A stretch of 64,000 bases of DNA, taken from Moniliella sp. 'wahieum'. Lineage: Eukaryota. The notes beneath the pieces were generated by a model. That model did no database searches, was not told the origin of the DNA, and saw only the letters and a list, made by a program, of their open reading frames with translations. The stretch spans positions 1-64,000 of the forward strand of contig RSEE01000142.1 in the NCBI GenBank assembly GCA_003971905.1. Direction: 5' to 3'. The translations under genes and the position numbers were made by a program. Shown piece by piece: positions 4,830 to 64,000 of this stretch; position 1 is the stretch's first letter, and every line of letters begins with the position of its first letter.

Positions 4830-4849
4830 ACGCGTGACGCGTGACGCGT
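4830..4849. promoter_or_regulatory. Three tandem ACGCGT (MCB-like) sites upstream of PIF1
   Basis: (ACGCGTG)x3 lies about 110-130 bp before the probable ATG at 4957. ACGCGT is the MluI cell-cycle box of fungal G1/S genes. Confidence 0.5.
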
Positions 4850-4956
4850 GACGAGGGACGAGGTGGATCTGCTAAATTGGCGGGGGGGCGGAACGGGACG
4901 TGTCTCCATTCTGCCTGGTCGCTCCGCCCGGGGGCAGGCGGCCCTTGAGCTACGCG

Positions 4957-7900
4957 ATGAGCTTGCCGCCACCACTGCTGCCTTCCATGGGTCGCCCGCC
5001 ATCGCCCGTCCCATTGCGCTCGCCCGCCACCTCGCACAAGCGCAAGCGCGCTCCATTTCCACCTCCACCACCCCCACCACCATCCCCACCACCTCCAACG
5101 ACGACGACGAGTTTTCCGACGACGGCGTCGACTGGGACGCATGCATGCATCTTTGCCTCTGCCCACTGTCCCCCAACCGTCCCCATTGGCCCCATAGGCA
5201 GCATCCAGCGCACACCCGCCTGCACCTGCCGCTGCACCTGTGGTGCATGGCAGACGTCCCAGCCTCAAAGGGCATCCTCACCTTCTCTCCGCCGCGCGTC
5301 CCCTCCCTCCGCCCCCCGCCCTTCTGCCCTCCCCCAAGCGACGGCGCACCTCTCCTGATCCTCCCCCTCCTTCCCCTCCTCCAGCCACCACCGCCGTCGA
5401 CCCGCCCGCATCCCATCCCACCCGCGGGCTCAATTCCCCTGCCGACGCCGCCCCCACTCCCACACTCCAGTCCCAGACCCAGGCCCAGGATGCGAGGAGC
5501 GTGACCGACGTGGCCAAGGTGACTGTCAACCCCACCGTCCCCACAGGCCCCGCCGCCCCTCCACGCCCTCCATCCCCGCCGTCCCCGCCGTCCCCACCGC
5601 TCTGGCCGCCCCCACCGCTCCCGCAGCCCCCATCGCTTCTGCAACCCCCACCGCCCGCAACCCCACCGCTCCCGCAACCCCCACCGCTCCCGCAACCCCC
5701 ACAGCTCCCGCAGCCGCGCCCGAGCTCTCGCTCGAGCAAAAAGCTGTCCTCCACCTCATCCGCACCCGGCACTCGTTGATGTTCACCGGCGGCGCCGGCA
5801 CGGGCAAGTCGGTGCTGGTGCGTGCGGTGGTGCAGGAGCTGCGCAAGCTCTACCCCTGGCGCGATGCCGTGGCCGTGTGTGCAATGACGGGCTTGGCCGG
5901 GCTGCACATTGGCGGCCAGACGCTGCATGCCTGGGCCGGCGTGGGGCTGGGCAACAAGCCACCAGACCAGCTGGTCCAAACCGTACTCCGAGCACGTGCC
6001 AGTCGCGCGCGCTGGATTGCGGCGCAGGTGTTGGTGGTGGACGAAGTGAGTATGCTTGATGCCGTCTTGTTTGACAAACTTGAGTACGTGGCGCGCGAGG
6101 TGCGCCAGTGCCCCAAGCCGTTTGGCGGGATCCAGTTGGTGTTGGTTGGCGATTTTTACCAGTTGCCGCCAGTCATTACAACGCCCATTTTTTTGGCCGA
6201 CACGATACCCAAATGCGCCTCAAGATCGAGTACCAAGCGCTGTGCCAAACCTACGAGTCGCGCTACGTGTTTGATGCTAAGCGATGGGCGAAGTGTGGCC
6301 GCGCACTGTCATCTTGACCCACGTCTTTCGCCAGGCCGATCCAACGTTTGTGGAAATGCTCGAGCAGACGCGGCGCGGCGCGTTGGAACCCAGCACGATT
6401 TCCAAGTTTTATCGCCTTTCCCGGCCACTACCCGTAGACGATGGCATCATTCCCACCGAACTCTATTCGACACGCTCCCAGGTGGGCGATGCCAACGCCA
6501 GTCGCTTGGCGGCTTTGCCGGGGCCGACGCACCGCTACGTTTCCCAAGACCTAAGTTTTGTCCACGAGCGGCGTAAGCCATACCAGGCCCATTCTTCGGG
6601 AAGTGGACGGCCGGGGGAGGATGGTGCGGGATCGGACCCCGTCAAGGAGTACCTCGACAAGCATTGCATGGCGGCACAACTGGTTGAACTCAAGGAAGGC
6701 GCCCAAGTCATGTTGATCAAGAACTTGGTCAATGGCTTGGTCAATGGCTCGCGCGGCATTGTTACCGGTTTTGTTGATCCATCCAACGGCACCGCCACGC
6801 GCCACGAGTCGGGGGGCTGTATTGGGTCGAATCGGCAAGCAAGGCGGAGCGCCGGACTAGGTTGGTCAAACGCAAAGTCCGCAAAGTGCGACGCGTTTTC
6901 CCCACCGCCCTACCGTTGTTCCGTCTCGTTCTCCTTCCCCTTCAGCTACAGGTACGGTTCTGCTACACCACTAGTACGGTCATTGGTACTGCCACCAGTA
7001 CTGCTACCGCATCTGCTTCGGACGCAGGGGCGGTCGTGGCTACCTTGTCTCGACAGAACCCTACCGATCCCATCGATTTGTCCAGTGAACCGGACCGAGG
7101 TCTCACCACCACGGCTCCTCCCTCCTCCCTGCCCCCGAACCAGCCCGCATGTCGGGTGTAGAACCCAAATCGGGAGCGGGAACAGGAACGGGAAAGGAAC
7201 GGGATCGACGGGCGCATTGTTGACCGGGACCGAGGCAGCAACGGCCATCCCGCTCTCGCCTCACACTCACACCCACACCATACCCATTCCCACACGCATG
7301 CCCAGTACACGGACCACACCACAAGTGGGGCCCACCTTGATCGCACCGATCCCCATCCGCCTATGTCGCCGCAGCGGGATCGGCAGGGCGTACCTGGGAG
7401 TACGAAGAGTACGAGACAGAAGAGGAAGTGGTGGAAGAAGAGCCGCTACGACATATTGAGGTGGCCACCGCTGCTGTAGGCGGAAACAAGGCTGACGAGA
7501 CGCGGCGGCCCGGTGGGGGGGCAGGGGTGGCAGGGTATGCTTTCGCGTGCATCCCGCGGCAGAGGCGGCAGTGGCGTGGGTGGCGGGTGGCGGCGGCAGT
7601 GGGGCGGCAGTGGTAGAGCGGTTGCGACGGGCGTGGTGGGGAGCAATGAGCGGGCATGGAGGGCGTGCAGCCCGGCACACTCTACCCGCTGGTGCGTTTC
7701 GTGACGGGCGCCACGCTACTGGTGGTACCACTGAAATTTGAGGTCGAGTCGTTGGTGGGTGGGGCAGAGGCCAGTCGGGTGCAAGTCCCACTGAGTCTGG
7801 CCTGGTCGCTATCGATCCACAAGGCCCAAGGCCAGACCCTCGATAAGTGCAAAGTCGACCTGAGCCGCGTGTTTGAAAAGGCCCAGGCATACGTTGCCTT

Positions 7901-8285: not shown

Positions 8286-8504
8286 GCAGAATGGACAGGA
8301 ATGGATTGGATTGGCTTGGCTAAAAGTACCGTTGTCTGTTGGGGAAAGGTAGATCGGAAGATTCGCTTTTCGGCCACTGTCTTCTGCCGCGGGTGCTCGC
8401 ATCGCCCAGGTGGCGAGCCAACACCTCCACCTCCACCTCCACCTCCACCTCCGCCAGCACCACCTTTACATTTTACCTCTGCCACCTCGAGTGCTGCGGC
8501 CACC

Positions 8505-12050: not shown

Positions 12051-13785
12051 GCTGAGGATGGGACGAGGGAGGCGGGGCGGCTGGCGGCCAACTGGACGGG
12101 TGGACAAGGCAGTCACAGTCACTCCTCCCCGCGTCCAGCGCGCATATATTCACCCCCCATCTATCCCCCGTGCCGTCCAGGGTGCAGCAGGGTGCAGCCC
12201 AGCACGCGGCAGCCACAACAAACAGTGGAGAGAGACACTGCCCCCGCGCTCCCCGGCGGCGGCGAACAGCACGTCTGACCGATGATCGCGGATCGCTGAC
12301 CGTTGTTCCTCCTCCATTCCAACATCCGCCCGCCCAGCACAGCCGCCCCAGCCAACCCTAGCCGCAACCGCCGCTCATCCCCACCCCCGCACCTGCCACC
12401 AGGCCCTGATCCGCCGACGTCATCCATCCTCCTCCTCTCTTGCAAGGGGGAGGTGGCGTGTCAGGAAACACGCAGGCCCCTCCTTGACCCCCAAAAGCAC
12501 ACGTCTCCCCCCCGGAAACAGATACAGCAGACTCTTCCTAGCCCGTGGCTACGCCTATCCAGCATCCGGTGAGCTCCACCAGTGCAGTTCCGTGCCGCCC
12601 CGTCTGCCTGTCACGGGCTGCGGCGGACACGAGAGTCCGACCCAAGCTAAGGCCCGCCTGCTCGCACATGCCCAGTAGAGCGTGCACCGCAGGCCAACCA
12701 AGTGTGATGATGGTTGGCTAAATTAAGTATCGTGGCCGAAGGGCCATGCTCCGCGCGACAATAGTCGCCCCCCGCCCAAGTCCAAGTCGGCCGGCCTAAA
12801 TAAGGCCACCGAGCTTCCAGTGCCGTGGCGGCATCTGCCGTCCCGTCCCCGTTTCCGTTTCCTTTCTCGGTCGCGCCTGTGGCGACCAACCCCGCTTTTG
12901 ACATGTCTTCCTTTCTACACCCCTCTTGTATCCGTTTCCCTTTTGATCCTGCCTGTACCCCTGGTTGATGGGGACTTTTCCCCCACCTTCCATTCTCGTC
13001 ATCCTCTCGTCATCCTCTCGTCTCCACTTTCGTCCCTTTCCCGCCTATCCTGTCCGACTCCTGCCCGTTTCCAGCCAATTGATCCAGTACAGGCAGCTCC
13101 TCTTGTTAGCGTCCGACATCTCCTCCGACCTCGTCTCCAGCCCTTCGTCAGTCCAATCGCGCGAGCCCTCCTTCGGTTGCGGCGATTCCCAGTCCCAGTT
13201 AAGGCAGTGTTTGTCCGCCGCTGCCTCCTCCCGTCCCTAAGTCCCGGAGGCTTCAGACACGTTACTACAGCCCAAGCCGGTGCAGACGCAGCCTTGCCAC
13301 ACGTGCAGCGCCCCACCAAGGCCCCTCCTCGTCCCTAGCTCCGCTCGGACACACCAACCAGCCTAATCCCGAAACTACCGTGAGTCGACCTACCGTCGCC
13401 TAAGGGATTGTACCCCAAAAACCCCAGGGCGGGCCCCCTGGCGGCGCCCGCCCGTGACACTGCCCAGTGGTCCGGCCTATCGCCCACGTGCACAGCAGGT
13501 GTCTATGCCTTGTCTCCCGGCAGGAAGTGTGGAGGAGGGGAGGGGGGGAGGAACAGGCAGGAAGTCAATCAGTCAATAACAATGCGGTGTTAGATACCCA
13601 GCAGGGGCCATGTCCTATACAGAAGGCAAGCGTACGCGCTACGCCCAAGGCGAAAATAGGGGGGGGGTGGGGGGGTAGCGGTTGGATGCCCTGTCCGGGA
13701 AAACGTCCATGGGAGGCGAGAGTCGGAGGAAAGTGCGCGGCTAGGGCCTGGGAACCAAATCCATCCCCATCGCTTTCAGCATTCA

Positions 13786-14547: not shown

Positions 14548-14710
14548 GCAGTAGGGCGTGATGTTCGTCGGTCTGGGTGAGTCGAGGGGGTCGGGCCGGA
14601 TGGGGGAGAAAGAGACACAGCAAGTGGCTGGTCGCCACAAGAGATATGGAGGGGGCTTGGGCGCACGTGCGTATGACGTCATGCCGCCCGTCTGGGGAAG
14701 GCCTGGGTTC

Positions 14711-14744
14711 AACGTTCAACGTTCAACGTTCAACGTTCAATGTT
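14711..14744. repeat. (AACGTT-C) heptamer array in msrA upstream region
   Basis: Four perfect units and one degenerate unit. Confidence 0.9.
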
Positions 14745-19742: not shown

Positions 19743-20571
19743 CCGTCCTGGTGCGCTGGTGCGCCTCTGTCACACACACCCTGACATGCATCATGCATCG
19801 TGTCACCCGCCCTATCACTTCCTCGCCGCCTGTCCACAAAAATGTCACCCCAGCCGCCACTCCCCACACCCACACACTCCACCCTCATCCACCCCATCTA
19901 CCGTCGCCATGCCATTCCTGCCGCCAGGCTGTGCCCGTGGGCGAGACGTCTCCCACGCATCGGACCCCGCCGAGGGAACCCATCACCACTGGCGTTGCCT
20001 GCAGCGTCCGGAAAACGAAACGGTCGAGTCCGCACCAGCACCGCTGCTCCGTTCATCAGGAGCGCTTTTGGCGATCCGCATGGGGTGTGGCACCCAGGCC
20101 GATTCGAAACAGGGGTCATCGTCCACATGGCCACAGGCCACCAAAGAGTGGCGCAGAGTGTATCCAGGGAAGCGCGTCTGCGCTCTGTCCCTCTTCCGCG
20201 CCCCACAGACGTCTCCAGCCATTGAGACCCGAAAGTGGGTGATTGTGCAGGGGGGTCGTTCGAGATTCCAGAGGACAACTGGTCGTCGAGCATAATGCCC
20301 TATTCACTACAACCGTCTCAGATCCAGCATGCGTTTCCGAGTGCTTGTCACGCGTCACGAGAGATTGGTGCGGCCACACGGATATGTTGTGGGTGCGGCT
20401 TTTCAGATGCCTGGCGCATCTGTTTTTTCCCTGGAGAGTGTGTCCCTCTCTGCGGCCATGGTGTGCTCCCCATTCTCTGCTATTTAATGTTTTGTCCCCA
20501 AACGCTTTTACATTTCTTGGTCTTGTCTAAAGAGACCTAGAGTCCGGATGGTCTCTCGAGGGTGATGCAAT

Positions 20572-20733
20572 CGCACTAGTGGTGATGGTGGTCTAAGCCA
20601 ACCATCAACGCCTACAGAGGAAATCAAGCACCGAGTCGCCACCAGGGCTAAGCTGCGGAACAAGGAAAAACAGGAGAGAGAAGACAACGGAACTCCTGGC
20701 CTGAGGAGAGAACTGAAGGGGCGTTGACCAAAA
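20572..20733 (+). repeat. Dispersed repeat copy 1 (homologous to 27274-27472)
   Basis: Colinear shared blocks CGCACTAGTGGTG, AGCCAACCA, ACGCCTAC, GGAAAA.CAG, GGCCTGAGGAGAGA.CTGAAGG and GTTG.CCAAAA. Confidence 0.75.
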
Positions 20734-21596
20734 AGCCCGTACGAGCCACTCGGTGGCTCCACATTTTCTCGAGAGACTATAGGAAGTACGTCAGAGTTAG
20801 CGACGGAGGCGTTGACCGTATAGACGGTTGAAGCTGGAAGGGCAAATGATACGGGTTCTGGTGTATGATGTAAGATGCATGGGGTGGATGAGGTGGGCAG
20901 CCATGTAAGAGGAAGCATGTCTTGTTCCTGGGGTCTTAATGCATCTAATGCCCGGCCTCCTTTTATCTCCGGCGCCAGGATGGAGCTGGGACGATGAACG
21001 TTGACGCCATAGTATACCGATTGCGAACAAGCGTTTACTCAACAAGGCCATACAACCATAGCACACTTGCTGCACATATGGCCTCAGCGCAAGGCGATTT
21101 TAGCGAGGTGGCGCAGATGCACCGCGCATTGAATCGGCTTATTGACGACAATCCACAGTCCACACGCACGCGGAAGGTTCAACTTGAACGTTAAACGTAA
21201 AGTACGTTACAACGTCAAGGCCCATTGGCTTAATAGTGTTGCTTAAGGACCTTATTAAGACCCCACACACCCGCCACACACCCGCTTTGCCGCGGTTCCC
21301 CTCCGCGGCTCTCCTCCCTTTAATTCCCATCCGGCACGCACGGGCCCACGTGCCACCACCGCGCGTGCTGGCCTTCCTATGGACACAAGCGCCCACACCT
21401 CGGCGCCGTCCACTAGCCACATTCAGCCTCTGCTCGCCAGACGCGACAACAGGCGACAAGTCAAGATGCCTGACTCTCATCCCAGCGAAATATATATATG
21501 TGCGGTATGGCCGCTTCTCTTCGCCTCCCCTTCCACAACTTTGCTCACCCGATACGCATCCAGCCTCCTAGTAACTCTACAGACACCACCGTTCCC

Positions 21597-22505: not shown

Positions 22506-23859
22506 ACCACCAAGGCAAAAAAGTTGAGATGCACTGGGGGATTTGGTTTCTCTTTCATTTTCTGGCTGTGTTCTCTCCCTTTGTGTCATACTCCTTCCTG
22601 TAGACTCAAGACCGTAGCCTCATCTCCTTTCCTTGGTGCATAGTGCGTATACAAGAGTAGTATCTCTCTGCAGTAGCAGCCGCGAGAAATCTTATATGCA
22701 GGGCAAGCACCACATTTTTGTAGGAAAGCTCCATCATATTTGGCATCTGTACTAACAGCGAAGTTTCTAGTGCTTTCCCGGTCTAGAATAGCCTACATCT
22801 CCCCGCCGTTGTGTGTTTCCTGTGTTTCGCGCGAGTACTCCGTACTGAGTGTTTAGGATCCGTTCGAACACATCCAGTTGTGCTTCTCGTGGTCAGAAGA
22901 GTAACATGACTCATGCCAGGCCTCATGCATGACGCCGCTGGGAGCCTGTGCGCGGTCCGGTTCCACGTCCTGTAGCTAGATAAGGTTATCGATCATGCCC
23001 ACCAAATTGCTCTCCATTCCGGTGGGGTGAGGGTCTGAAGAACGAGGAAAACGCCATAGATTACTGCCAGCTGCGCGATCACCTCGCTGGCAAATTAAGT
23101 TCCCCCCTGCCTCACGGGTTTCGCCCTGTGCCCCGTGCTCTGTCGTCGTCTCCTGTGCCGTTCTTCATTCCCCTCTTGCTCTTGTTTCTTTCCCACGAAC
23201 AAGATTGGCACATGCGCTGACTTGGGTCTGGGCTTTGCTTCTCGTAGGCTTAATAACGCATTTGTCCCCCGACTGTTCTGAGTGAGAAGAGTGAGACCAC
23301 CACGTTTCCCTGGGCCTTTTGCCTCATCGAGCCCTCAGGCCTCTCATCACTAATTCACTAGTCACACTAGTCACTTCCAATCGTCGTTATTTTTACGTAG
23401 AAGACTGATACTGACCGGTGAAAGTATTCTAGAAAGCATCGCTACAACCCGCTTGCTTGGATTGGGGCTGGCGAGGTAAGCCAATGTGGAGATGCAGTTT
23501 GCTTTGCGGGGTTCCATTCTAGAATGTGACCGAGTACTCCGACCAAGGACACTGGGCACTGCGAGTTACTGAGCGCGTGGAGTCCGTCGAACGTTGAACG
23601 TTGAATGTTAAAACTACGTACACGCTGGCCATTGACTAGCTATTGACTACTAGTGACTAGTGACTGTAGAGTTGAAGTGTTGCATGTTGAGTAAGACTGA
23701 GTTAGCCATACTAAGTACGTTGGGTTTTCCTACGCGCTTCACTGGCTTAACCCCGCCCCTTGGCTGTCCCCAGGCTGCGCCTTAGTAGGAGAGGTGGCGT
23801 GGATTCAAAGGGTGGCCAGGGGCAAGGGGCGAGCTTGCTCCTAGTCGCCCGCTCCCCAA

Positions 23860-23901
23860 AGGCCTAAGGCCTAAGGCCTAAAGCCTAAAGCCCAAGGCCC
23901 A
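23860..23901. repeat. (AGGCCT-A) heptamer array
   Basis: Three perfect and three degenerate units. A further AGGCCT array lies at 24086-24111. Confidence 0.85.
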
Positions 23902-24959
23902 ACACGCACGAGCATGCTGCCATGTCACAGTCCCTAACCCCGACCTGCGTGATGCGTGACCGGTGACTGGACAAGCGCGCGCGTGACCCCAACGTCTTGC
24001 CCAGCTGGCCTAGCTGGCCTAGCCCCGCCGTTGGAGCTTGTGAGAGATGTGGCAAGTGAGCGATTGGTGGGGTCTTAGCGTTCTGAGGCCTAGGCCTCAG
24101 GCCTCAGGCCTGGGCGAACCATTGCATTCCCCAGGCCTTGTAGCTGCTAGGTTGGACTTCTGGGTTGGTAAGGCCCTAAGGCCTAATCAGGGTAACACGT
24201 AACGCGCAAGGTGCTCCCAATCCCACCCCCTGGTTGGCGTTTCCCACTTGGTTTCTCGCTGGTCTGTGTAGTCAGTCCCTAGCGGCGAGCCTCCTCGCAA
24301 CGCTGCCCCCCTACCCAACCACGCTGTGATATGTGTCAATGTGTCACATTTGGCACCAGGCCGATAATCGATAATCGATAAGGCCTGCCCATCAGCCAAG
24401 CAGGTCTGAGGGTTAAGCCTCAGCCTGAGGAGGCTGGGTGGGCGCTACAATCGTAGACGTGAGTCGAGGGCACAAGGGTTGGATTGAAGTTGAAGGTCAC
24501 CTGGGCGGGGGGGCTGGGCGCACGGCTCTCGAGACTTGCGCTGGGCATCCGTGTGCGCCAGCCTATCGTACTGCTTGCCGGGTACCCATCCTCGATCCGG
24601 GCCGCCGCATCTGCCCCGGCGGGTCCCATCCGTACGCGGCGAGAGCGAGTGACTAGGCCACGCTTGCACTGGGCTCGTCTATAACCCCTTCCCCCCCGCT
24701 TCCGTCAGCCCGCTCACAGCCCGCAAACAAAGACACAGCATGGTTCGTAGTGCGCGCCAGGAGCAAATCCTGGCCGGGGGAAGAAGCAGAAAGGGAGCAA
24801 GGGACAAGGGAGGAAAGAGCAACCAAGCAACCAAGCAACCAAGCAACCAAGCAACCGAGCAACCAAACAACCGAGGAAGAAAGCAAGAAAGCAAGAAGCA
24901 AGCTGTGGTCTTGGCTCGGCCCGGCCCGGATCGGATCGGGTCCCCCCACTCCCCTCCAC

Positions 24960-25869: not shown

Positions 25870-27273
25870 GGTGGGCGGATGGACTGGAGCTGGCAGGCGC
25901 GGGCCGGGGGGCGGGAGGAGGCGTGGGTGATGGGGCGGGGTGGGTGACGGGCAGCAGGGGGCGAGACAGACAGGGCAGGCAAGCTGCAAGGGCCAGCCAG
26001 CGTGCGCATGGCTTGGCTGCTGCCCGGCCGTCGCCGTGGCTGGGGGCGGTGTGGTGGGGTGCGGCGTGGTGCTGCGCCGGGCGAACAAAACGAGGCGGGA
26101 GCGTGCCAGCACGCAGCACACCGCACCCGCTGCCCCAGCGCCACTGTACGCGGGCGGCGCACGGGCCCAGCCAGCGCGTATCAATGTCCAGGACCCAGTG
26201 TGTCGCATGTCACATGTCACTGTCAGTATCAGTCCGCTGTATGCGGTTGCTGCGGCCGCTGGGGCAGCCGGGCGACAGCAGGCGGCCACTGGCAGGCGCG
26301 ATCGCATGCGACAGCGCTGGCGCAGTGCGGCCGTGCACCGAACCGATTGCATCGCATCTCGATCGCAAGAAGCCAGCAGCAGCTGCATGCACTCGTACTC
26401 AGTACTCGGACTCAGTTCTCGTACTCAGTATGCGCAACGTACTCACCCCATCAGGCATCCCAGCGTTCATTAATATGTTCATTCCCACAATCAGTGCTCA
26501 GCCGCGGCATTAAACCCCAGCGGTCCCCTGCTGCGTGCTTGGGCTGCCTTAGGTAACCCACAGTCTCGACTGCACGTTGAATTTCAGTTCGATATGCGAT
26601 GGCATCTGACATGGTGGGACCAGCACCAGCACTCGCACCAAGCAACCCCGTTTGCCGACGCTGCAGGGATCGCCCCCACGCAATCCCCGTGTGGCTGCAG
26701 CAAAACAACTCCCCAGATAGCCCACCCACATGCCTCATGCCTCCCTCCCTGACAGCCCCTCCCAGATCCCACGTCCAAGTGGGTCCGTTGGGGTTACGGT
26801 TACTGCGCCCTCTACACCTCACCGGTCACCGGTCACCGGTCACCACGCATATAATGTCCGCGATGTTTTTCGCGCAACTCCAACTGGGCCCCATGATCCA
26901 TCTGATCGATGCCAACCGCACCAACAACGTCCTCAGGTTCCAAACGCATTGCGCGTGTCTTTGGACCATGTGGAATGGTCCCACCATGTTGCGGCACTCC
27001 TACCCTGGTCCCACAGGACGGCATCGATATACCATGGCGATGGGGGGCCATTGGTTCCACCTATAGCTACGTAGAAAAGATGGGTTGTACCAACGAGACT
27101 GTATAACGTCTCCAAGTCGCGCAACGCGCAAGTGGATCTGCTGCAACCCGCTGGTCAGTCAATGTAAGTGGCGTGCACGGCCGCCGTACATTCAGCAGGC
27201 TTTTGCCACTCCCTCACTATCTGATGATGAAATCTAGAGTGATGGAATTCTGATAGTCCTCCAAGGTGGTGCA

Positions 27274-27472
27274 CGCACTAGTGGTGGTAGTGGTGGACTA
27301 GTCAGCCAACCAACCACGCCTACTTACAGAAGAACTCGACCATCAAGTAGCCAGTCACCACCAGAGGCTAGGCTGCAGGCCAGGGAAAACAGAAGCGAGA
27401 CAACAACGCAATGACTCCTATAGGCCTGAGGCCTGAGGCCTGAGGAGAGACTGAAGGAACAGTTGGCCAAAA
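27274..27472 (+). repeat. Dispersed repeat copy 2 (homologous to 20572-20733)
   Basis: See copy 1. This copy carries (AGGCCTG)x3 at 27422-27441. Confidence 0.75.
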
Positions 27473-30562: not shown

Positions 30563-31391
30563 GGCGGCGGGGCGGCGGAGACGAGCGGGCGGGTAGGGGG
30601 CGGGGGGGGACAGCAGGTGGGGGGGGCGACGGGGCGAGGGTGGAAGCCGGTGGAAGCGGGAGCGATGGCGGTCACCGGTCACCCGTCTCAGCGCAAGGGG
30701 AGCGCCGGTCGCCGGCTATTCTGGGCAGTATGCAGGCGCCCTGGCGCCAGGCGCTCAGGCTCAGGCACGCACCCATCGGCAGCTGACGTGTGACATGGGA
30801 CGTGGGATGCATGTGACGCTGTGACGGCATCCTGGGTACCCACACGCTGCTCGCACAGCACAACCCAGCCGGCCGCCGCCGCAGTGCCGCCGCGTGCCGC
30901 GTGCTGCGCGGGGCGCCGCACAACGACATAGCGCTCCGTGCGGCGGGCGATGCGATGCAGATGCAGCTGCAGCAGAGCAAGTGCTCCCTCGGTTGAATGG
31001 CCAGCATCCCACAGACGCCGCCTGAGACGCGGCGCCAGAGCGGCTCATCCATCAGCGCTCAGCCAGCGCTGACCAGCACGCATCACGCGTCCCAGCCTGC
31101 TCGCTTCCTCGCCCAGCGCCCAGCGGCCTGGGATGCATCATGCATCCCATGGTGCATCCCATCCTGCGTGTCACGCGTCACGCATGCACTCGAACATCAT
31201 GCATCAAGCACCACATATCACGCATCATGCATCCCACGGCATGGGATCCGCGTCTCAACCGCCTCCGCGCCTCCGCGCCTCAGCCTGAGTACTGTACTGA
31301 GTCATTCCGCTGGCTGTGCGCTGCTGTCGCCGACCAGCCCCGACAGGCGCCGACGACGTTACTCGATCGATTTGGATCGGTGATCACGATC

Positions 31392-31475
31392 ATCGATCAT
31401 CGATCATCGATCAACCATGCACGACTCTCCCCGCTTGGCTCTGCACGCTTCAAGCTTCAAGCTTCAAGCTTCAAG
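31392..31475. repeat. Adjacent (ATCGAT-C)x3 and (AAGCTT-C)x3 heptamer arrays
   Basis: Arrays at 31392-31411 and 31452-31471. Confidence 0.9.
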
Positions 31476-31869
31476 CCGCACAGGCACACCCTGCCCAGGC
31501 ACAGTGCGGCGGTGCCTGATGCATGATGCTCGGCTGCTGGCGTCTCCACTGGCCAGCTGCGGCGCTGGCCGATGACTGGCCCTGGGCCAGCCACGCACGA
31601 CAGGCGTGCAGTCACTTGGCTAGTCATTATATAGTCACTTGGCTAGTCAGCGCTCCGCTGGGCTGGCCATCTCTTTCTGAGGCCATTTAGGGTTATCCAT
31701 AATCCCTCAGGGCAATGGCTGGGATTCCCCAGCCCCACCCCCAGCACGTCCACGTTTAACGTTTACCGGTTACCACGGTAGTCGCGCTGCAGAAGGTACC
31801 CTTGGGCCATTCTCCCGTTGCACCCTTGGCGTCGAGACGCTGCATCTCTATGTAATGCATGTGCATATC

Positions 31870-31911
31870 ACGCATCACGCATCATGCATCATGCATCATG
31901 CATCATGCATC
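31870..31911. repeat. (ATGCAT-C) heptamer array
   Basis: Four perfect units at 31884-31910, preceded by two ACGCATC variants. Confidence 0.9.
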
Positions 31912-32100
31912 ATGTAACATGGAACGGCCATCAATTTTACGTACCCAGGACCAAATGAACTCTTGGCTCGGATGGTAAATGAGCTGCCGGACTCCCGGTC
32001 GGCAGCAGCAGAGACACGTGCTCACTCCAGGCTCCTTGAAGCTTGAGAGTTAAGATCTTGTTCAGTTAGCTTACCTACTCAGAAGGTTTCCTTTTCCTCT

Positions 32101-34686: not shown

Positions 34687-36457
34687 GGATACGCTTGAAG
34701 CCTGAGACCTGAAAGTAAATGGGGGGGCGGCAGGGGTAGGATGGGCCGGACAAGGAACGGGGGGTGGGATTTTTATTTATATCGATTGGAGGTGGGATGG
34801 GGTGCAGAAGCAGGACGCAGCTAGTCACGCGTGGCTGCGTCGCGATGAATCGCAGACATCGATCATCATGCATCATGCATCATGAATCATGCATCATGCA
34901 TGGATGTTGACTGTGCTGGTGTGGGACCTTGTGGCCTGTGTGACTGGACGCGAGACATGGGGGTGCGAGGGGCGTGGGAGCGGTGTGGGATGAGCGACTG
35001 AATTTAAATGATACTATGTACAGTGTCGGCCTGCAGTTTCAAGCTTCACGCCCCTCTGTCTTGGATTGCCTGGCTCTCCGATCTGAGATCGTGAGATCCG
35101 ACGCGTGACGCACGACTGCCGCGTGGAGAAGGAAGGGCAAAGAGGATCGATGAGGCTGAGGTTGATCAAGTCGATGAAGTCGACGAAGCTTGAAGCTTGA
35201 AGCTTCAAGCCCTTCAATGCCTCATCTGTATCCCTGCATAGCATCCCTGAATAGCATTTTAGGTTGTACTCGCAGCCCTACATGTTCGCACAGTGTGCGC
35301 AACACACGTATATACTCGTAAAGCGGTAAACCATCGCCTAAAGCGTAACATGTAACACACGTATACAAAACGCGATATCGCGTAGTGCGTAACGCGCAGT
35401 ATCTATACTCGCACAATGATTAAAGAATTGAACGGAAGACAATTTAGGCCTTGGGTAGAACTTAGACCGAAAAAACCTAAGCCGGTAACCAACAGTAATT
35501 GATAACCGGCAACCGAACAAATCCTAGCATCGGGGGGACGCACGTAGTACTAAAGTACCCCTCTATGCGTGCATCTTATTATCATCGGGATCGATCGACG
35601 ATCGGCCACTGGCTCAGCGCTCATGCGCTCATCGATCATCTCAAAATTCGTCCGGAAGGTCGCGTAGCATTAATTGCTGTGCGTTTTTTATGCGTCTAAG
35701 TAGATATATACCAGGTGTACTAAGTAGTGCGTATACCGGTTACCGCGCGGTTAGCTGATGAAGAACCCTTCTCCATCCAAATAAGCGAGCGTCACGCGTT
35801 CGGCGCCACGAGTCAGCGACTCCGAAAGGTCGTGCAGGGGAGCCGTAGCACTATTAATATACCCGCAGGCCTCTTTCACAGATCTCACATTGCAGGACAC
35901 GCATACTTCTCCTGTCGTCACCTTCTCGTGCGTTAAATCCACAGCAATTGCAAAAATGCTACAAGGACATGAGAAACACGTCGCCCCCCTGACCGTTCGC
36001 TGAGAGAAGAAGAACCGACCATCATAAAAGATGATTGATGATTATTGATGGCGGATCCGGAAAGCTATTGAGGCGATGAGAAGAGATGAGAACACCACTT
36101 AATCATAGGGTCCGCTCTCGCGTTGGGTGGCAAGAGAAGTTGTGCATAATAAGCACCGGACCAGACAAGACCATATCATTGCCCCCGTATATATAGTCCT
36201 AGAAGGGCGTTGGGTCAGGAAAGGTGATGCAGGCAATAACAGGGCCGAGAAGGTCTTGTCACTGGAAAACTCAACTCTCGTAGGAGTGCAGTGGAATACG
36301 GGAGGATCGTATACGGATCAGACTGTGGATATTGAGTTCGACAGAAGCCGTTGTGCCCTGTCGAAGAGATGCTGGACTTCGACGGCCCACATAATGGCTG
36401 CCCGCCAGTTTAGAGGAAGCTGGAAAACCAAAAAGTATATAACGGACTACAGGCACG

Positions 36458-36585: not shown

Positions 36586-37782
36586 GGGGTGTCTACTATA
36601 CGAGCGGCTTGCAACAATTGGAACGATGTGGAGGCGCCACGGATAGGACGCGCGGCGCAGGCTAAGCCTAAAACAAACCTCTAACTAGGGCAGTCCCACT
36701 CACGACGACCACGGTGCAACACACGCTTGTATTCTTGCTCGTTCCCAGCGTCTATGCCGCGTTGTCACGAGAGCCAGCGCCCCAATTTAGATTCACCTCG
36801 TCTCTGATCTGCCCGGTCGGATCTGTCAGTGGTGCTTAACGTTCAGGGTCAATCGCCGTGAAGAGGCCGTGCCAGAGCCGTCCTTCTCTAAAACGGAAGC
36901 ATCCCTGTACACTGTGGGCCGCGCCCCAGTCCTGAATTCGCCTATGCCAACCCTTTCAGGTTTGATCACCTGGCTCTGCGTGTCCGTGTGGTGTACTGTG
37001 CAACGTTTGGGGCCTGTTGTCCTTGATAAACTATGTTTTGGCGGAGAGAGAGGCCAATAACACTGGGGGTGCGGTATAGCGATGATGACTTCAAACTATG
37101 CCTTGCCCTATAACCTCGACGCATCGACGTAGATCGGGAGTCGGTATCGGCATCGAAAAGGACGATTGCTTCGTAACGCGTAAGGCCAGGTGGCGGCAGG
37201 CTCATCCTGCGCGGCTGCCTATAGAATGGTGCGGTGGATGCAGGATGGGCTTGTTGAGTAGAGCTAGTAATCCTTTTGCGGAGGTCGGCGCTGATGTCAT
37301 CGCTCGCGGTGTCTGTGCCTGGGGGCGGTTACAGGTTACCGGTTATGCATATGGTTACTGGGAGTCGCCCCCCTTAGGGCGAAGGCACGGGGGCAGCCTG
37401 CATCCTGCCTGCCGTCTTGGGTTCTGAAATTTGAAATCGCATCTTCCGTTGTGATGTCCTCCCGGCGATCCTTTTTCGCCAAAGCTGCCGCTGGTCGTGT
37501 GACCATGTGACTTGAGCGCCTGAGGGCCTGAGCGTCGCCCATCGTCGCCCATCGGCGTGCGCGCCTCGATCTGGGATCTGAGATCGGACTGCCGTCCAAC
37601 CCAAGTCGTTGCGCTGCCCAAGCACACTATTCTTCTCTCAGCAGCACGCCCTGAATTGTAGCCTCCCTTCGGCCTTCGCTTCTTTCCGTTGACTCTTCTC
37701 CCGCTCCCACTGCGCTCTCTGGTTTAATTTCTGGAGACTTGCCACGCCGTCCGCTCAGCGCTCGGCTTGCTTGCGCCCTACC

Positions 37783-41635: not shown

Positions 41636-42031
<396 letters not shown>

Positions 42032-42917: not shown

Positions 42918-43390
<473 letters not shown>

Positions 43391-48572: not shown

Positions 48573-51508
48573 GGTGGTGGGGGATCGGGTGGTGGGGAGG
48601 GTGGTGGTGGTAGTGGGGAAGGGGAGGGCGGGCGGGGGACAGAGGGAAAGAGAGCGGGTCAGGTGCCGAGGGGTATATGTGCCAGGGAGGGAGATGTGTC
48701 TCAGATGGAGCTGTGTGCTAGTTGGGGCTCGAACTGATTGGGCAGATCGGATTGCGAAGCGCCGAGGCTGGCTCAGGTGGGAGGACATTTGTGAACGTCT
48801 CCCTTGGAGGACCCGTGTGCGTGCAACAAACGCACCAAACTCGCTCCGAGTGGCTTATTACTTACCCAGCACACGCGCTCCAGACGCTGGGCATCTCTCG
48901 CCCGCGCCACGGGGCACAGTCGCTGCCACCTACTAATCAACCACTCGCAGAATGAGCGCCCAGGCTCTCAGAAGCTACAAGAAGTACGACCGGCACCCGC
49001 GCATGGGGAGAACTGAGAGGAAACCACTGCTAGTAGGATGGGGTGCGTGTTTTGGCACAGGGCATCTCTCCTTAGGTAGTCGAGTCTAGCAGCTGCCTCG
49101 CCCGCCTCTCTCGCAGCGCGTGCTGTCCAATACGCCGACCGCAGCAAACCTCGGTCTTGGCGCTGTTTCTGCAATGCATCGAAAGCGGGCGTCTCAATCT
49201 CATCGTTGCTGGCCAAAAGCCCATACTCCTCGAGGAGAACAGCAGCTCCAGGAGGTGCTTCTCCAAAGCAATTCCAACGAGGTTGGCATGTTTATTGGTT
49301 TAACGTTTAACCCGGCACATTGTGTTTTAGTGCGCACCATAACCAACCAAAGTGTTCAAATCACCAATCACGAATCACCCGAAAATCGTAGCAAACGGTG
49401 AACGCAACCCACACCTCCGCCTCCGCCCCAATGGAAGACGGAAACCCACACTCGCCTGTGGGAGCTGGGACGACGACATCGCGCCCGCCGTCCCGCGCAT
49501 GCAGAGAGCCGTTCGGAGGATCGAGGGAGGCGAAAATGACACGCAGTGCGGCCAAAACCTCCGTCGCGTTGCACACATTGAATCCGTGTGGCATGCCGCT
49601 CTCCCCTCGAACTCGTGAGCAATCCCACAAGAGCGGAAACGCGCCAACAAACCCCTGCCATCAGCACGTCTCGAGTTCACTCTTGCACCATCCGGCCGGA
49701 ATACGCAGGCCTACTCGATGACCCGATAGATTCAAGACGTGTCAGGCGTCCAGCGTCAGGGGGACGGGTCGGGGCTGTATGACCAGATACACGTTATGGC
49801 CTAGCCCGCCGAGCCACAAAAGATACGGTCGAGAAGCGTACCAGGTGCCCCAATTCGTTCTCGCCGCGGTGGTACCAATGACCGTGTCTGTGTGAGCGAG
49901 CACAATACACGCCCAACGGCCCTTCGTGACATTGTCAAGGCCACCTCAACCCGTACGGTTACCACCCTAAAAGAAAGGTGACGAGGGGCATGAAGTGCCA
50001 CTCCCCCGGTGGCCCCACACCCATGGAGGCGAATACAAAACCCAGCCACCACAGGGCCGAGCGGGAACTTGAACAGGCCCTGCAGTGCCCTGCGGTTCAA
50101 CCCGCCTCGACCACGGCTGGACGCAACTGGCATCCTCTCTCCACAGATGGCACGTCGGAGTGGGTCCTGTCCCGCGGCCCGGCAGATCTTACCAGAGTGG
50201 GCCATTGGATCGCTCCCCGTACCGCTCTCACTACATGCTCCCTCACCGCCACCAGCACGTTCCTGGACCCGGCCATCCCCTCGAGTGAGATGCAGGCTGT
50301 GCTTATGGGATTAGGCATGGCTCTTGTCTCCATAGCCCTGCAGCTGTGCGAGCGCGACCTGCTTGTTTAGCCCCGTACATGTGCGCAGGATGGCGTTGCA
50401 AGCGGCTTCGCCCCGATGCTGGTCGAGTAGCAGGCGCGTTGTGTCGCTGCCGCCACGGATTTGCGCAACTGAGAACCTATAGCCGGGTGGCTGACGACCT
50501 GGTCATACTGGCAGGGTAGAGGGGCTCGACATGGCCACCACGGCTGAGCGTATATCCCAGACCAGCCGTGTGGTCGGTTCGGGTGTACAAGCCTCTGGGC
50601 AGAGACACGACGGGTAGCATTCCCGCCCCGCGTACTCTTGCTCAACGCCCATCACAACCGACTGGCCTCTCCCACAGGGCCGCTCTTCTCGTCCAGGCCC
50701 ACTGTTCTGGGAGGAGGAGCAGCGATTGAGCCTTGTCAAGAACAGGCACTTGCTAAACGTGACGGGCTTGACCCACCTGTCAAGCTAAGTCAAAGACATT
50801 CGCCGCGCTCATTCGTCTGCCGGAAGCCTGCGGCTGTGCTCGACTGTGTGCTCTGGCGCATCCAGCGCGGCGTTGGCAAAGGTCCCTTGCGCTCCGTGGA
50901 TGGCATGCCGCCAGGTCAGGATCACCCATATGATTGTGAAGACGCCCATGGCCGCATCCAGTTTGAAGTGTTGACCGTCGTCTCCTTGTGGGGTCGGCTA
51001 GGCTCGGGTGCCTTTGATTGGGCACAAAGTGGCTGTTCGTTGGGGTTGGGTCCAAATCGGTCTAGCACGGCGCTTCCTGCAGCTGCAAAGCACGGTTGCT
51101 GCCACTCCCACATGTACGTGTGAAAGGCTTTCTATTGACTGCATCTTTTCCCAATCTCCTACCGAAACTTCGCCCTCCATGCATCTCTCTCCACTTGTCC
51201 TGCGCCTTGTGTCCAACGATGCCTGTCACGACGATATAATCCTTTTGCGGTGGTCAGTGGGATGGATGGCGGTGTATACTCGTACTTGATACGGATGTCA
51301 GCCGCTCCTTCCCCGACCAGTTTCCAGCTCAAGTCAATCTCTCCGCTCTCATCTTCCTTCCCCACCACATGGACCCCTCCATCCCCCTACATCGGCTCAC
51401 ACCAGCAAAGGTGGTCCTTCTTGTGATCAAAGTGTTTTGTGGCGTGGGAAGCCGCGAAAAATCAGAGTCCATGGCGGGGCCAAACAAGGAAAGTTTCTTG
51501 CAGCAAGC

Positions 51509-52579: not shown

Positions 52580-53308
52580 GGTGAGGGTGGTGGGGAAGGG
52601 GCGAGGGGTGGAGGGGTGGAGGGATGGGAAGATGGCTGGCGGGGAGTGCTGAGCCGTGGAGGCTGAGTGGGGTTAACGTGGTTAGGCGCTGGAAGCCTCG
52701 GAATCGGAAATCAGATCTCGCTTCTCGCCTGTCACATCTCGGGTGCGAGAACAACGGATTAAATGAGCGCGCACAGCGGCATTGGGGCAGTCTTCAGCCT
52801 CGTACTGAATATGCCTCGACGGGTGGCGGAGTAACTAGCAACTAGTCACTAGTCACGGCCCAAATTAAATTGCAAATCAAGAGACCCTGCTTCCTGAGGA
52901 GGCCTTAACCAATGCAAACACCGTTGGGGCTTGCCAAGGCTCCCTTCTGCTATGCCCGATGGCCCACCACCAGGTACCTCACACACTTGGTGGGGAATAC
53001 GCCGTGGCTGCCGGCTATCCCGGCTACTCGCGGCCAGGCCTCCTCAATCTCTCGCTGATGGCAAACGTGTGGCTAGTCGGAGGCAGAGCAGGAGGGCATA
53101 GGAGGAGAAGGCCACACGACAGCGTCTATACTAGTACGGGCTTGGGCTTCTAAGAAGCTTGATTGGGAAAGAGCAAAGTCGTACATGAAAAGGGGAGACA
53201 AGCTGGCACCCACGGGGGTAAGAGGATCTGGGTGAAATGGCATGAAGAGAAAGTAGGGCAAAGAGCGAGGGAACGGGATGAGAAGAACCACATTGAGAAA
53301 AGAGAGGC

Positions 53309-58232: not shown

Positions 58233-58311
58233 GGTGGTGGTGGTGGTGGTGGTGGTGGTGGGGAGGAGACGCGACGCACGCAGCTCAGCCCGCCGTCTTT
58301 TAGCACGCCAG

Positions 58312-58343
58312 ACGCGTCCCAGTGGGCGTCACGCGTCACGCGT
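58312..58343. promoter_or_regulatory. Three ACGCGT (MCB) sites upstream of POL1
   Basis: ACGCGT at 58312, 58331 and 58338, 80-110 bp upstream of the ATG. POL1 is a classic MCB-regulated gene in yeasts. Confidence 0.65.
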
Positions 58344-59804: not shown

Positions 59805-60460
59805 CCTCGCCACCAACCGAGTGGGCACGAACTAGGGACGCTCCCGCCTCTCTGCTCTCAGAATCTCACCAGTACCTGTTGCATCGTCACCAACAAGACC
59901 GAGCAGAGCGGAATCTCATTTAGGAGGCGGGGGAGCATGGGCGCAGCGGGCAGTTTGAACGTTCAATATTACATCCAATCCCTGTTGAAGTTCAACATTC
60001 ACGTTTCAATTTTCAACGTAACGATCGACGTTGTCATTCGCAGCTGCGGCGACACCGGTGTCGGAGTGCCAGAGTGTCTCCGCCACGGGTATATAACGCC
60101 TAAGGCCTAAGGGGTGCCCCCACCTCGTTAACACGGAATGCACGCCTACTATCTTATCTGCACAGCAGTCACCATCAACTCATAGAAGCGGCCTGGTGCG
60201 GCGCATCAACGGAACAAACGCAAGTACTAGTCATTACAATGGGACCAAGCGTCAAGCTTCAAGGCTGTGGTCCTCAATCGTCGCGAGCAAAAAAACGGGA
60301 GGGTATGAGCGGGCACCGCGGCACAGCCGTAGCATCTCGGTGGGGTCACAAAGGTGCATGGGGGGGGGGGAGAGAGGTGGGCAGGAAGAGAAGTGAAAAG
60401 AAGGACATGGTAGTTCATGCAGCAGGCGTTCATGGTGCATACCTCATCTTCAGAAGAGGA

Positions 60461-62196
60461 TTACATCACGGTGCAATTGGCTTCCCCTTCGTATGAGCGC
60501 GCTTGCGGCCCGGTACGCCGAGTCGACGGACTTGGATGGTTGTGGAGCCTGCGGGGCAGGTGGGAGGAGCGGCGCTCGATCATCGGCGAGCTAGGCGTAG
60601 GTGGGGTGGAATCGACGGGGCTGCGAGGGACCTTCGGTTCTTCCTCCAGGATGGGGACGACAGGCAGACGGCGTTCGAGCTGAAGGGGTGCGGCGGGGGC
60701 CTCCTTGACCACCGGCTGGGCACGCGCTTGAAGCCGAGGGGTAGTACGGTTGGAGGGGGGCGAAGAGGCAAGTGCGGCGCGGATCGCACCGAATCCGGCC
60801 ATCGGGGTCGGTGTACGAGCATCTTCCGTTCGGGCTCACTTCCCTCCACATCGGGGGTGGCCGTGTGACGCATGCTCCGCAAGGCACTCAGGCTTGCTTG
60901 CACGCCATGTCCGGCTGCTTGAGGTCGGCGCCGGGAAGAGGAGCTGTGCTACCAGCGGTCAAGGTTGCGCTGCGGGCACGCGTATCGGTGCCGGAGCTGG
61001 CGGGAGCTGGGAGAGTTGTAGGACGAGGAACGTGCTGCTCGCCCTTGATACCAGGGGTGGGGGGTACGGAACGGGCTTCACTCGTCCAGCTTGTGCCCAT
61101 GCTCAAGCCCGAAGTGCTTACTTGGGAGGCCGTCGAGGCGAGAGAGCCTTGATGATGCACGGTCCTCAACGAGCGCTCCTTGGGGGGCGTACGGGGCGAG
61201 CTGCGGCCCAAGCCAAGGAACGAACGCTTCTTGTCGTTCAACCTGTGCCCCGAAGCGACCCCAAACGCCTTGCCCCCCGTGGTGCGAGACTCGATCTGGT
61301 TGAGGGCGAGCTTGCGCGCCAGGCTGACGTCCTGGTAGCGTGCCAAGTATTCCTGTGCCGAGGGAAATTCCAATGCGGCGACAAGAACGGGATCGTCGAT
61401 GCCCAGGCGGTGACCCTCGGCTTGACGCCGTTCAAACTCGGCTTGCACCGGGTCAAACAGGTCCTTGTCCCCCAGACGCGGCATGCACCCGGTCCAATCT
61501 TCCGGGTCCTTGGGCGTAGGTGGCACTTCTTCGCCCGAGTAGCCTACCAAGAATTGGCTCGGGTTTGCATTGATCAGCTGCGCAATCCGGCCTTGGTACC
61601 GCGCCTTGGGCACCCGCACTGCCATTTCTTCCAGCATCTTGTCCAGGACTGCCAGCGCCACATCACGGGGGTAAGTGGAATCCGTGAGGATCACCCCGCA
61701 TAGCTCGTCCTCCTCTGGCCGGCCAGAGGAGAGAGCGAGAAAATCGGTGGATTCGAACTGGACTTGGTCGTTCGGCGCAGTCTCCTCAGCCAAGTCCTGT
61801 GGGTACAACGGAATGCATCCTATGGTTAACTCTGTTTTCTGGATCGACAAAAGCCAACGCAAGAGAAGGACGTACCTTGGCATCAGACGCCATTTGGTCT
61901 TGCATCTGCTGCCTCCGTAGCCAACTGAAAGGGCTCAAATCCCATGCCGCCAGAAGTGGGATGCGGTGCGTGCTCTTGTCCTGGGTAAAGATGATGGCTC
62001 CGTCTGGAAAATGAATGGATCGACGGTCAGGACTTCGTCTCTTCATCCGCACCATCCAAAAAAGGGGTGCGGGAGGAGGGGGGGGTAACATACATAAGTG
62101 CCTGCAGAGACGGGGTCCAAGCGGAAGCAGAGAGAAGAGTCTCTGGGGTCAGTATCTACGCTTCCAAAGCAGAAACGGGAGGAACGGAGCGTACAT
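60461..62196 (-). CDS. Ykt6-like longin-domain protein with C-terminal CAAX but no SNARE motif
   Basis: Spliced N-terminus MHLYGAIIF...AAWDLSPFSWLRRQQMQ...LCGVILTDSTYPRDVALAVLDKMLEE...FPSAQEYLARYQD. Introns 62102-62194, 62004-62093 and 61797-61875. It ends NCTVM* after two -1 shifts. Confidence 0.7.
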
Positions 62197-64000
62197 GGCA
62201 GTGGTGGTCAGAAGCGGGGGATGGGGGTGTGGCAAAGACAGGGAACAGAGATGATCTGGATGAACAATGTTGCTCAGAGTGTGGTGGCCGTAAGAAACCG
62301 ACGGGTGTGAAGCCGGAGGAGAGAGTGCTTCACGCTTAGAAAGGGCGAGGAAGGAAGGAAGGCCGAGAGGTGGGAAAGAAGGAAGAGGAGAGGAACGTGT
62401 TGCGGTTGCCCAGCGTGTGGTGCGTCAGCATCTTGTAGCAGCTACGAGTAAAACCCATACCAGGCCGGATCGGCTGCTGCCATAGGAGCGGGTGTACCGC
62501 TCTTCATCCTTGCCGGTTAGGGCCACTGCCAGCGCAAACACCAAAGTGTCCAGTGGCTAGTGGCAAAAGAAGCCTGAAAATCACTTGGGCCCCTCACTCC
62601 GCCCAAGGCGACTGGGCACTGTGCAACCTCGAACCAGATTGGACACTCGCGGGATGCGGGATCTGCCGGCCAGGCATGAGGTGCAAGAGGGCCTGGGATC
62701 TGAGACCAGAGGGCGTGGCCGGGCTCAGGAGCGGGGCCAGTGTCCACACTGTGGGCGCCCCCGCACCGCTCCGATGCGGAGGACGCGGAAGAAGCCGGCA
62801 AGCACCCGGTACGCCTTGCGACGCCCTAGGGGTCGTGTCAGCATGTCAGATCGTGTCACTGTCACTTGCCCAGCCACTGTGACACGTGACATGCGACTAG
62901 TGACATGAGTGACAAGGCACTATTAGTCATTCTGGTCACTGCCCTGCAGATGAAGCAGCGCCACCGGCGGTAGGGGCCTTGGGGCCGTTTGCCTTGGGGT
63001 CCGCGCTTAGCGGTTCCCGGTAACCGGTAACCAGCTAGGCGAGTGACTAGTGACGAGCTATTGGTTACGAGTGACAAGTTGCCAGTTGCTAGCTACTGGT
63101 TAGGCCGTAGGCCGTAGGGCGAAGCGCTCACACGCCAAGGTCTGCCAGTGTGGGCAGTGTGTTACACCCTGGCGGGTGGGAGCCGCAAGCCGCAAGCCAC
63201 CAACTGGCGCTGCTGGCTTCTCGCATGTCGTGGCGCACGCTGGCAACAGACGCATGTTCCGGCTCCCGCCGGGGTGTGCCCTGGCACACCCTGGTGCCAA
63301 AGGGTCTGAAGGGTCCCGGACCCAAAGCTAGCATGGCGCCGCGTGGGACGCAGCACTGACGCCGGCGCAGACCGCGGAGTGGAGAGGCTGCAAGCTGCAA
63401 CAGGGAGAAAATCGATGATCGATGATGTCGATGATGCACGATGCATGGTGGTTGTAAGAGGAAATTCAGTTGAAGCGCTGCGCAAAAGTAGCATCGGCGT
63501 CCAGTCGCCTCCAATGGCCCACCAGGGCCCAGTTCCGACCACCCCCTGGCGTTGGCAGTGGGCAGCTGGGGAACAGCACTTCTGAAAAGTGTGCATTGTT
63601 GTCGGCTCAGCCTGAGCGCTCAGCGTGCGGCCAGCAGCAGAAACGGCTCCTCTTTTTCCCCATGGCCCACACTACGTCTCGCGGCTATCCCTGGCTTTCC
63701 AGCCTCTCGTCGTACTTCAAGCTCTTCAATACGCTTGAACTTCAAGCTTCCTTTGCTCATATCTTAGCGCTTCGTAGATCTTCTCTCTCCTGAAGCCTTT
63801 TCCGGCAGATCCGCCATCTTCACACGCCATCGCCATCGTCCTGCCAGCAGCACGGAACATAATGGCAACACTAAAGCGCTGGTCCAGATTCTCAGGTCTC
63901 AGGCCTCAACGGTTGATCGAGGCCTCAGGCCTCATCGGCAGCAAGCGCCAAACACCCTACCATGTGTATACATGTCACACCCACGATCCCACGATCTGTG

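Follow-up and report, generated by a model that had tools for sequence, protein, structure and literature searches.

We found that a 64,000-bp stretch of fungal DNA (the window; positions 1-64000 of contig RSEE01000142.1, in a 69.5-Mb, 223-contig assembly) carries many short tandem arrays with a period of 7 bp, which differ in sequence and obey a single rule. The pattern is real, and the arrays are probably excision scars of a cut-and-paste DNA transposon, a mechanism inferred from the sequence of the scars. Writing the target as u v T n A b c, with a prime for the complement and n for the spacer, the basic event converts TnAbc into TnAbc + c'b' + TnAbc; five bases are copied forward and two backward. 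A sequence-only reading of this DNA had described the unit as a hexamer palindrome running from A to T plus one base. Such arrays were present at all 18 coordinates checked, but their ends are phase-locked to TnA and the smallest form is the 12-mer TnAbc-c'b'-TnAbc. The hexamer is A-b-c-c'-b'-T and the extra base is n, so that the A..T rule is T-n-A read across a templated 4-bp palindrome.

Our statistics rest on the window together with 79 loci of 10 kb each, sampled from large contigs at set offsets (854 kb in total, 1.2% of the genome); a few of these loci are homologous to one another. Exact period-7 arrays of at least 14 bp number 60 in the window, and 28 of them consist of an A..T palindrome plus one base, where Markov models (orders 1, 3 and 5, each run 30 times) predict 0.03, 0 and 0.17, below 0.2 per window throughout. 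In the 790 kb of the 79 loci the same class accounts for 232 of 510 arrays, and the other three palindrome classes together for 13. The excess over other classes and over the Markov models was thereby confirmed, and the earlier estimate that at least eight of the 16 A..T palindromes form arrays was exceeded, as 12 of the 16 are common in these loci; the four all-A/T hexamers are rare (ATTAAT 2, others 0). The accompanying statement that other palindromes form no arrays held in the window for C..G and T..A (0 each) but not for G..C, with three. The array spacer is C or G in 187 cases and A or T in 45. Genome-wide, a triple of the AGGCCT unit occurs in 66 places and its reversed control in none. 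Non-overlapping 12-mer sites amount to 512 in the 854 kb, 41 of these in the window, and are clustered, with a median gap of 228 bp; by extrapolation, the genome holds roughly 40,000 sites, counting both haplotypes.

Among arrays of 11-12 bp, TnAbc-c'b'-TnAbc and its mirror are the most frequent, with 88 and 101 cases. A pentamer, two templated bases and the same pentamer occur 138.8 times per 10,000 TnA pentamers, compared with 0.9-8.4 in the other 15 classes of first and third base, and n is the same in both copies in 874 of 960 cases. TCA and TGA are equally frequent, both about twice as frequent as TAA and TTA. Nearly all b,c pairs are in use, with all-A/T pairs disfavoured (0.41% vs 1.15-2.06%), and no wider flank preference was seen in the sample beyond echoes of decayed copies.

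The length of the copied stretch defines the target. In 616 kb of non-coding sample, stretches followed by the same two templated bases measured 5 bp (TnAbc) in 861 cases, 6 bp (vTnAbc) in 90, 7 bp (uvTnAbc) in 48 and 8 bp (one base more) in 2, the 6- and 7-bp counts excluding 7 and 10 array-internal cases, respectively; seven control classes gave at most 11, 6 and 2 cases at 6, 7 and 8 bp. The unit therefore extends two bases beyond TnA on each side, making 7 bp with n at the centre of symmetry. The turn falls 2 nt beyond A in 427/90/48/2 cases, one base further out in 31/4/2/0 and one base further in in 0/31/5/4, stretches below 5 bp being omitted from these counts. Where the whole 7-mer was duplicated with a filler of one or two bases, the filler was templated in 60/68 and 45/68 cases, far above controls. 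Both orientations are equally represented (221 vs 210), and neighbours less than 200 bp apart share orientation in 59 cases and oppose it in 63, with no co-orientation, a balance that a symmetric enzyme would leave and a lagging-strand error would not. In a minor class of 43 cases the second spacer is complemented, while transitions account for 32 cases and other changes for 10. Opening of the hairpin at a greater distance from its tip could give this class, a weak suggestion given similar complement counts at other positions. Two other descriptions were rejected: a symmetric 5-bp duplication, as there is no A preference at c and the A-n-T class is at background, and period-11 'variants', which proved to be slips within existing arrays.

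Duplication of 7 bp, with a blunt hairpin at the edge of the duplicated stretch and two templated bases, matches excision by transposons that form hairpins on their flanks. Insertion would take place at u v T n A b c, for the most part at TCA or TGA and in promoter DNA, and duplicate these 7 bp; on departure the transposon would close both flanks into blunt hairpins, in the manner of RAG. A host nuclease would open the hairpins 2 nt off the tip, leaving 4-nt 3' overhangs (b c c' b' and v' u' u v). The products seen in the sequence, the main +7 form TnAbc-c'b'-TnAbc and the +8 and +9 forms, occur equally in both orientations. They correspond to joining that retains one overhang whole and strips all (+7), three or two bases (+8 and +9) of the other. 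By our arithmetic, two fully overlapped overhangs would give 5 + 4 + 5 = 14 bp (+7), the loss of three or two bases from one of them +8 or +9, and nothing longer. Enzymes of the hAT, Transib, RAG and MULE types form hairpins on flanking DNA (excerpt of PMC5499845), and Artemis opens RAG hairpins mainly at +2 to leave 4-nt overhangs (excerpt of PMC2175297). One match to DRMBL, of the Pso2/Artemis family, is present in the genome. The sequence-only reading had proposed that the rule is structural rather than sequence-specific, that a mutational process with a fold-back step wrote it and that slippage by itself cannot produce it. All of this agrees with our results, but its hairpin centred on T-N-A does not, because the data place the turn at c|c', an even centre that lies two bases beyond A.

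Each scar holds two fresh TnA targets, of which one is a perfect 7-bp palindrome, so repeat hits, perhaps with slippage, would lengthen scars into A-NNNN-T-N arrays. Of the four second events that could follow a first one, three should extend the same unit and one should add a different core. The chains with two cores, 20 mixed and 55 homogeneous, come near the 1:3 predicted; 12/20 mixed chains have both predicted flanks, and n is unchanged in 26/30 mixed triplets. The arrays can thus be explained by repeat hits, to which slippage probably adds.

Comparison with a homologous contig, C68 (about 90% identity; C29 and C102 are more distant copies, about 75%), shows such events as differences between the two homologues. 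The repair genes that we looked at are mostly paired in the assembly, so the two haplotypes were probably assembled separately. Among the indels between the window and C68 the 7-bp class stands out, with 33 cases compared with 17 at 6 bp and 11 at 8 bp. In this comparison, of a kind that the sequence-only reading had suggested for orthologous loci, 23 of the 33 seven-base indels follow the rule with at most one mismatch, beside 1,777 substitutions between the homologues. Many indels set a single pentamer against pentamer, two templated bases and pentamer (GATGA/TC, GGTTA/CC, TGAAA/TT, CCTAA/GG, TCTCA/GA, CTTCA/AG, ACTGA/GT, CCTGA/GG and GGTCA/CC), and many arrays are common to the window and C68. 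One array, at 27422, lies in an old solo long terminal repeat (LTR) and has three units in both homologues and one unit in 9/9 other aligned family copies (11/12 loci could be aligned, four of which were read on the opposite strand); it grew in place, because the other family copies hold a single unit.

The sites avoid predicted coding DNA and are densest in gaps on the promoter side of genes. Coding and gap classes come from a self-trained, crude codon model, and the gap-class figures are approximate. Predicted coding DNA has 3 sites in 239 kb. Density per kb is 0.01 for coding DNA; among the gap classes it rises from 0.04 (short same-strand) through 0.43 (convergent) and 0.67 (tandem) to 1.52 (divergent), and the rate per TnA target follows suit (short same-strand 0.13%, convergent 1.6%, tandem 2.9%, divergent 5.5%). 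A target less than 150 bp from another site is hit at 8.9%, one far from any at 1.5%. A dense cluster at 30.6-32.3 kb of the window lies upstream of a TPR gene.

RAG flank hairpins are blunt, a property with which an excerpt of PMC2175297 is consistent. V(D)J coding joints with P nucleotides, the work of RAG and Artemis, and the excision of Transib resemble the events proposed here: a hairpin on the flank is opened, mainly 2 nt from its tip, to leave 4-nt 3' overhangs, one or two bases are templated and the ends are joined (PMC2175297 and PMC5499845, in excerpt). The scars show the even centre and the one or two templated bases of a blunt hairpin of that type, with the turn fixed at c|c' and the filler templated. 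Unlike V(D)J joints and Transib, one product dominates here and recreates its target; moreover, Transib and RAG duplicate 5 bp at GC-rich sites (excerpt of PMC1131882), whereas here the duplication is 7 bp centred on TnA. Footprints of Ac/Ds and other hAT elements, including hAT7 of rust fungi, likewise combine target duplication and palindromic bases. The 7-bp ceiling differs from the 8 bp of classic hAT and is compatible in length with hAT7, which according to an excerpt of PMC12730594 makes 7-bp duplications in basidiomycetes, rust fungi among them. Ac/Ds palindromes are centred on the complement of the element-adjoining base, an odd centre (excerpt of PMC5873905), in contrast to the even centre here, and odd-centred scars fell below expectation in 15/15 length cells. 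The scar of a classic 8-bp hAT, with an inverted middle unit, was rejected, as hexamer-base-inverted hexamer occurs 5 times against 5.0 expected. The MULE Muta1 also forms flank hairpins (excerpt of PMC5499845), but its 8-9-bp duplications, lack of target preference and approximately 90% precise excision (excerpt of PMC5225508) differ from the 7-bp ceiling here; the 8-10-bp duplication of a MULE is not seen in the scars, and the genome gave no match to a MULE or Mutator transposase. Among the matches listed for metagenome loci with one such array, of which at least 121 were checked (41 of them short), none had two or more other cores nearby and six had one; a comparison with other genomes likewise gave no similar stretch.

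We searched the genome for the enzyme. Thirteen of 14 transposase families had no match genome-wide in a search that is blind to introns and hurt by frameshift errors; three of these 13 had a positive control and ten had none. The unmatched families include the hAT-linked PF05699, PF02892, PF04937 and PF14372 and RAG1/Transib PF12940, all without a positive control, and MULE PF10551, with one, and PF20700, without. Only CACTA/EnSpm (PF02992) matched, at two loci, L100 and L101. The L100 gene is old and syntenic in both haplotypes, and its haplotype differences are spread evenly over codon positions (14/18/16), as in a dead gene under neutral divergence; an internally deleted relative (L233/L234) is likewise present in both haplotypes. 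A homologue search with the L100 frame returned nothing among longer proteins and distant relatives only among representatives. L101 (G000:C34:513408-516695, minus strand) is a single-copy CACTA/EnSpm-like gene with long open frames, no terminal repeats in its 2.5-kb flanks and possibly a domesticated role. Neither locus shows the terminal inverted repeats (within 2.5-kb flanks), several mobile copies or 3-bp duplication of CACTA elements, and the scars imply 7 bp.

Several observations weigh against excision of a transposon as the source of the scars. No inverted-repeat element with a 7-bp nnTnAnn duplication appeared among the matches listed in the approximately 0.95 of 69.5 Mb scanned (about 1.4%), 13 of the 14 families are unmatched, and the two CACTA-like genes that did match have no terminal repeats. 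In the sample, 7-bp duplications without filler do not exceed background at TnA, nor is there any enrichment of scars whose templated bases derive from both ends (1 case at 2 bp and 3 cases at 3 bp). The window-C68 indels carry no polarity, so gain and loss cannot be told apart, and the single polarised case is growth of an existing unit and not birth. In the literature searched, no described family joins a 7-bp duplication with blunt flank hairpins. Nevertheless, a low-copy element could suffice, since 23 rule-fitting 7-bp indels against 1,777 substitutions do not call for a high rate. Rarity, excessive divergence, disruption by assembly errors or recent loss may have hidden the element; failing that, a host enzyme would be the writer.

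Such a host enzyme, a domesticated CACTA/Transib-type transposase or another nuclease that makes a 7-bp stagger and a hairpin at promoter TSA sites without any element, would account for the near absence of transposases, for templated bases coming from one end only and for events that still separate the two homologues, and a single-copy CACTA-like gene without terminal repeats does exist. We nonetheless consider it rather unlikely, as a 7-bp duplication with a blunt hairpin would not follow from a break alone without an insertion step, the other CACTA-like gene diverges like a dead one and EnSpm/CACTA elements duplicate 3 bp (excerpt of PMC12730594). In its fullest and unlikely form, a host enzyme, possibly L101, would write a stereotyped, self-renewing scar at promoter TCA/TGA and so act as the genome's own sequence-directed mutator, building microsatellites and rearranging the motifs of promoters genome-wide. 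A replication error close to the idea of the sequence-only reading, in which a 5-nt 3' flap c'b'TnA folds on a T-A pair, is extended by 2 nt and ligated, would be a minimal version of the small inverted triplications of FEN1-deficient cells, which are likewise formally forward-inverted-forward (Abc, c'b'T, Abc). It gives the main +7 product exactly, unchanged spacer included, needs no element, fits the disfavour of all-A/T stems and has a published precedent in flap fold-back (excerpt of PMC13334657). We regard it as quite improbable. Fold-back of a 3' end at A cannot yield the 6- and 7-bp duplications, and it leaves the 7-bp ceiling unexplained too. Flaps of 4 or 6 nt were not seen in the sample, C-G or G-C closing pairs are at background, strand polarity is lacking and short same-strand gaps are nearly empty. 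Two FEN1-like copies appear to retain catalytic motifs, which we take to be intact. The published triplications (medians 148/160/148 bp, no sequence or TnA rule, tied to FEN1 loss; excerpt of PMC13334657) also differ from 7 bp in a fixed register.

Ordinary microsatellite slippage, with the products kept by selection as protein-binding or structural promoter elements, could act on a subset of sites, and clustering in promoter-side gaps would fit it. Some units contain ACGCGT or TGACG, which we take to be familiar motifs. As an origin it is largely refuted and highly improbable: the flank predicts the two inserted bases, mostly without matching junction sequence (as read by eye), and sites arise inside solo LTRs. 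The related proposal of a structure-recognised cis element is likewise unsupported, because sites turn over between homologues about 90% identical and tolerate nearly any b,c pair. The chance that base-calling or assembly created the pattern is nearly negligible. The assembly is noisy, with 417 one-base indels over about 46 kb between the homologues and frame breaks in conserved genes, FEN1 included, which suggests an unpolished long-read type. An artefact would not respect the boundary between coding and non-coding DNA, where the former is nearly free of sites, and many arrays recur in the separately assembled homologue.

Table. Arrays, scars and empty sites in the window (positions of the whole stretch; C68, homologous contig).
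Feature	Position	Strand	Remark
Array TGA-CGCG x3 + TGACG	4828..4853		Starts at T of TnA, ends after b,c
Array AACGTT-C	14707..14740		Sequence read
Array AACGTT-G	23589..23605		Sequence read
Array ACTAGT-G	23649..23665		Absent from C68
Array AGGCCT-A	23859..23881		Sequence read
Array AGGCCT-C	24092..24111		One unit shorter in C68
Array ATCGAT-A	24362..24381		Sequence read
Array ACATGT-C	26206..26220		Period-7 array count
Array ACCGGT-C	26819..26844		Shorter in C68
Array AGGCCT-G in old solo LTR	27422..27445		LTR copy alignment
Single scar GGTCA-CC-GGTCA	30669..30683		One GGTCA in C68
Two short arrays, ATGCAT-C and ACGCGT-C	31133..31183		In 30.6-32.3 kb cluster upstream of TPR gene
Array ATCGAT-C	31387..31413		Sequence read
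Array AAGCTT-C	31447..31476		Sequence read
Empty site GATGA	31571..31575	+	C68 has GATGA-TC-GATGA
Empty site GGTTA	31691..31695	+	C68 has GGTTA-CC-GGTTA
Mixed chain GT-TTA-ACGT-TTA-CCGG-TTA-CC	31754..31774		Read as left-hand plus right-hand event at one TTA
Array ATGCAT-C	31879..31914		Sequence read
Array ATGCAT-C, one substitution	34864..34901		14 bp shorter in C68
Array AAGCTT-G, last spacer complemented	35185..35205		Sequence read
Single scar TGAAA-TT-TGAAA	37425..37437		One TGAAA in C68
Two 6-bp-duplication variants, GTCACA-TG-GTCACA and CTCAGG-CC-CTCAGG	37498..37532	-	Sequence read
Array AACGTT-T	49298..49311		Period-7 array count
Array ACTAGT-C	52841..52856		Sequence read
Array ACGCGT-C	58326..58343		One unit longer in C68
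Array AGGCCT-A	60098..60112		Period-7 array count
6-bp-duplication variant CTGACA-TG-CTGACA	62836..62849	-	Sequence read
Full 7-bp duplication + 2 templated bases AGTGACA-TG-AGTGACA (+9)	62899..62914	+	One AGTGACA in C68
Array ACCGGT-A	63017..63032		Period-7 array count
Empty site ACTGA	63355..63359	+	C68 has ACTGA-GT-ACTGA
Array ATCGAT-G, running into 7-bp-duplication variant	63411..63436		Sequence read
Empty site CCTGA	63789..63793	+	C68 has CCTGA-GG-CCTGA
Array AGGCCT-C	63920..63934		Sequence read

The window is a chromosome end, as positions 1-22 are CCCTAA telomere repeats. Three copies of a 140-bp subtelomeric unit follow at 264-677, and a subtelomeric Pif1-family helicase gene with a Pif1 2B domain lies at about 5500-7500 on the plus strand. 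DNA polymerase alpha encoded in the window has best matches of 82% and 79%, followed by Tilletiaria anomala (61%) and smut fungi; because these are the closest named matches, we place the organism in the Ustilaginomycotina. The approximately 90% identity to C68, the paralogues C29 and C102 at about 75% and two matches to Pho80-type cyclins in the window would suit a hybrid or dikaryon, perhaps atop an older duplication. Solo LTR-like elements with TG..CA ends lie at 12609-13459, 41035-41238, about 20510-20770 and about 27240-27490. The first two are flanked by 5-bp duplications (CTGCC and GCAGG), and C68 lacks the one at 41035. LTR retrotransposon target sites were rejected as a source of the arrays, as these 5-bp duplications do not follow TnA. 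Solo LTRs are plentiful genome-wide, and recognisable cut-and-paste transposases are nearly absent. Elsewhere, L031:6084-9756 holds overlapping open frames of 1,054 and 1,200 codons with internal repeats and without a Pfam match.

Transposon footprints with palindromic bases are well known. In the literature searched, outside which most subscription journals fall, we found no description of a genome-wide, single-product, self-renewing scar of 7 bp centred on TnA with an even hairpin centre. If our interpretation is true, the approximately 40,000 sites record past transposition without the element, so that target length, target preference, hairpin geometry and the host repair spectrum would be readable from sequence, and they point to a transposase that pairs a 7-bp duplication with RAG-like blunt hairpins. 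The scars would also represent a route to new microsatellites that requires no prior repeat and regenerates the substrate on which it acts. Since most of the palindromic motifs made by the inserts lie in promoters, cis-regulatory change may be fed by this process, and the same footprint test would be applicable to any genome.

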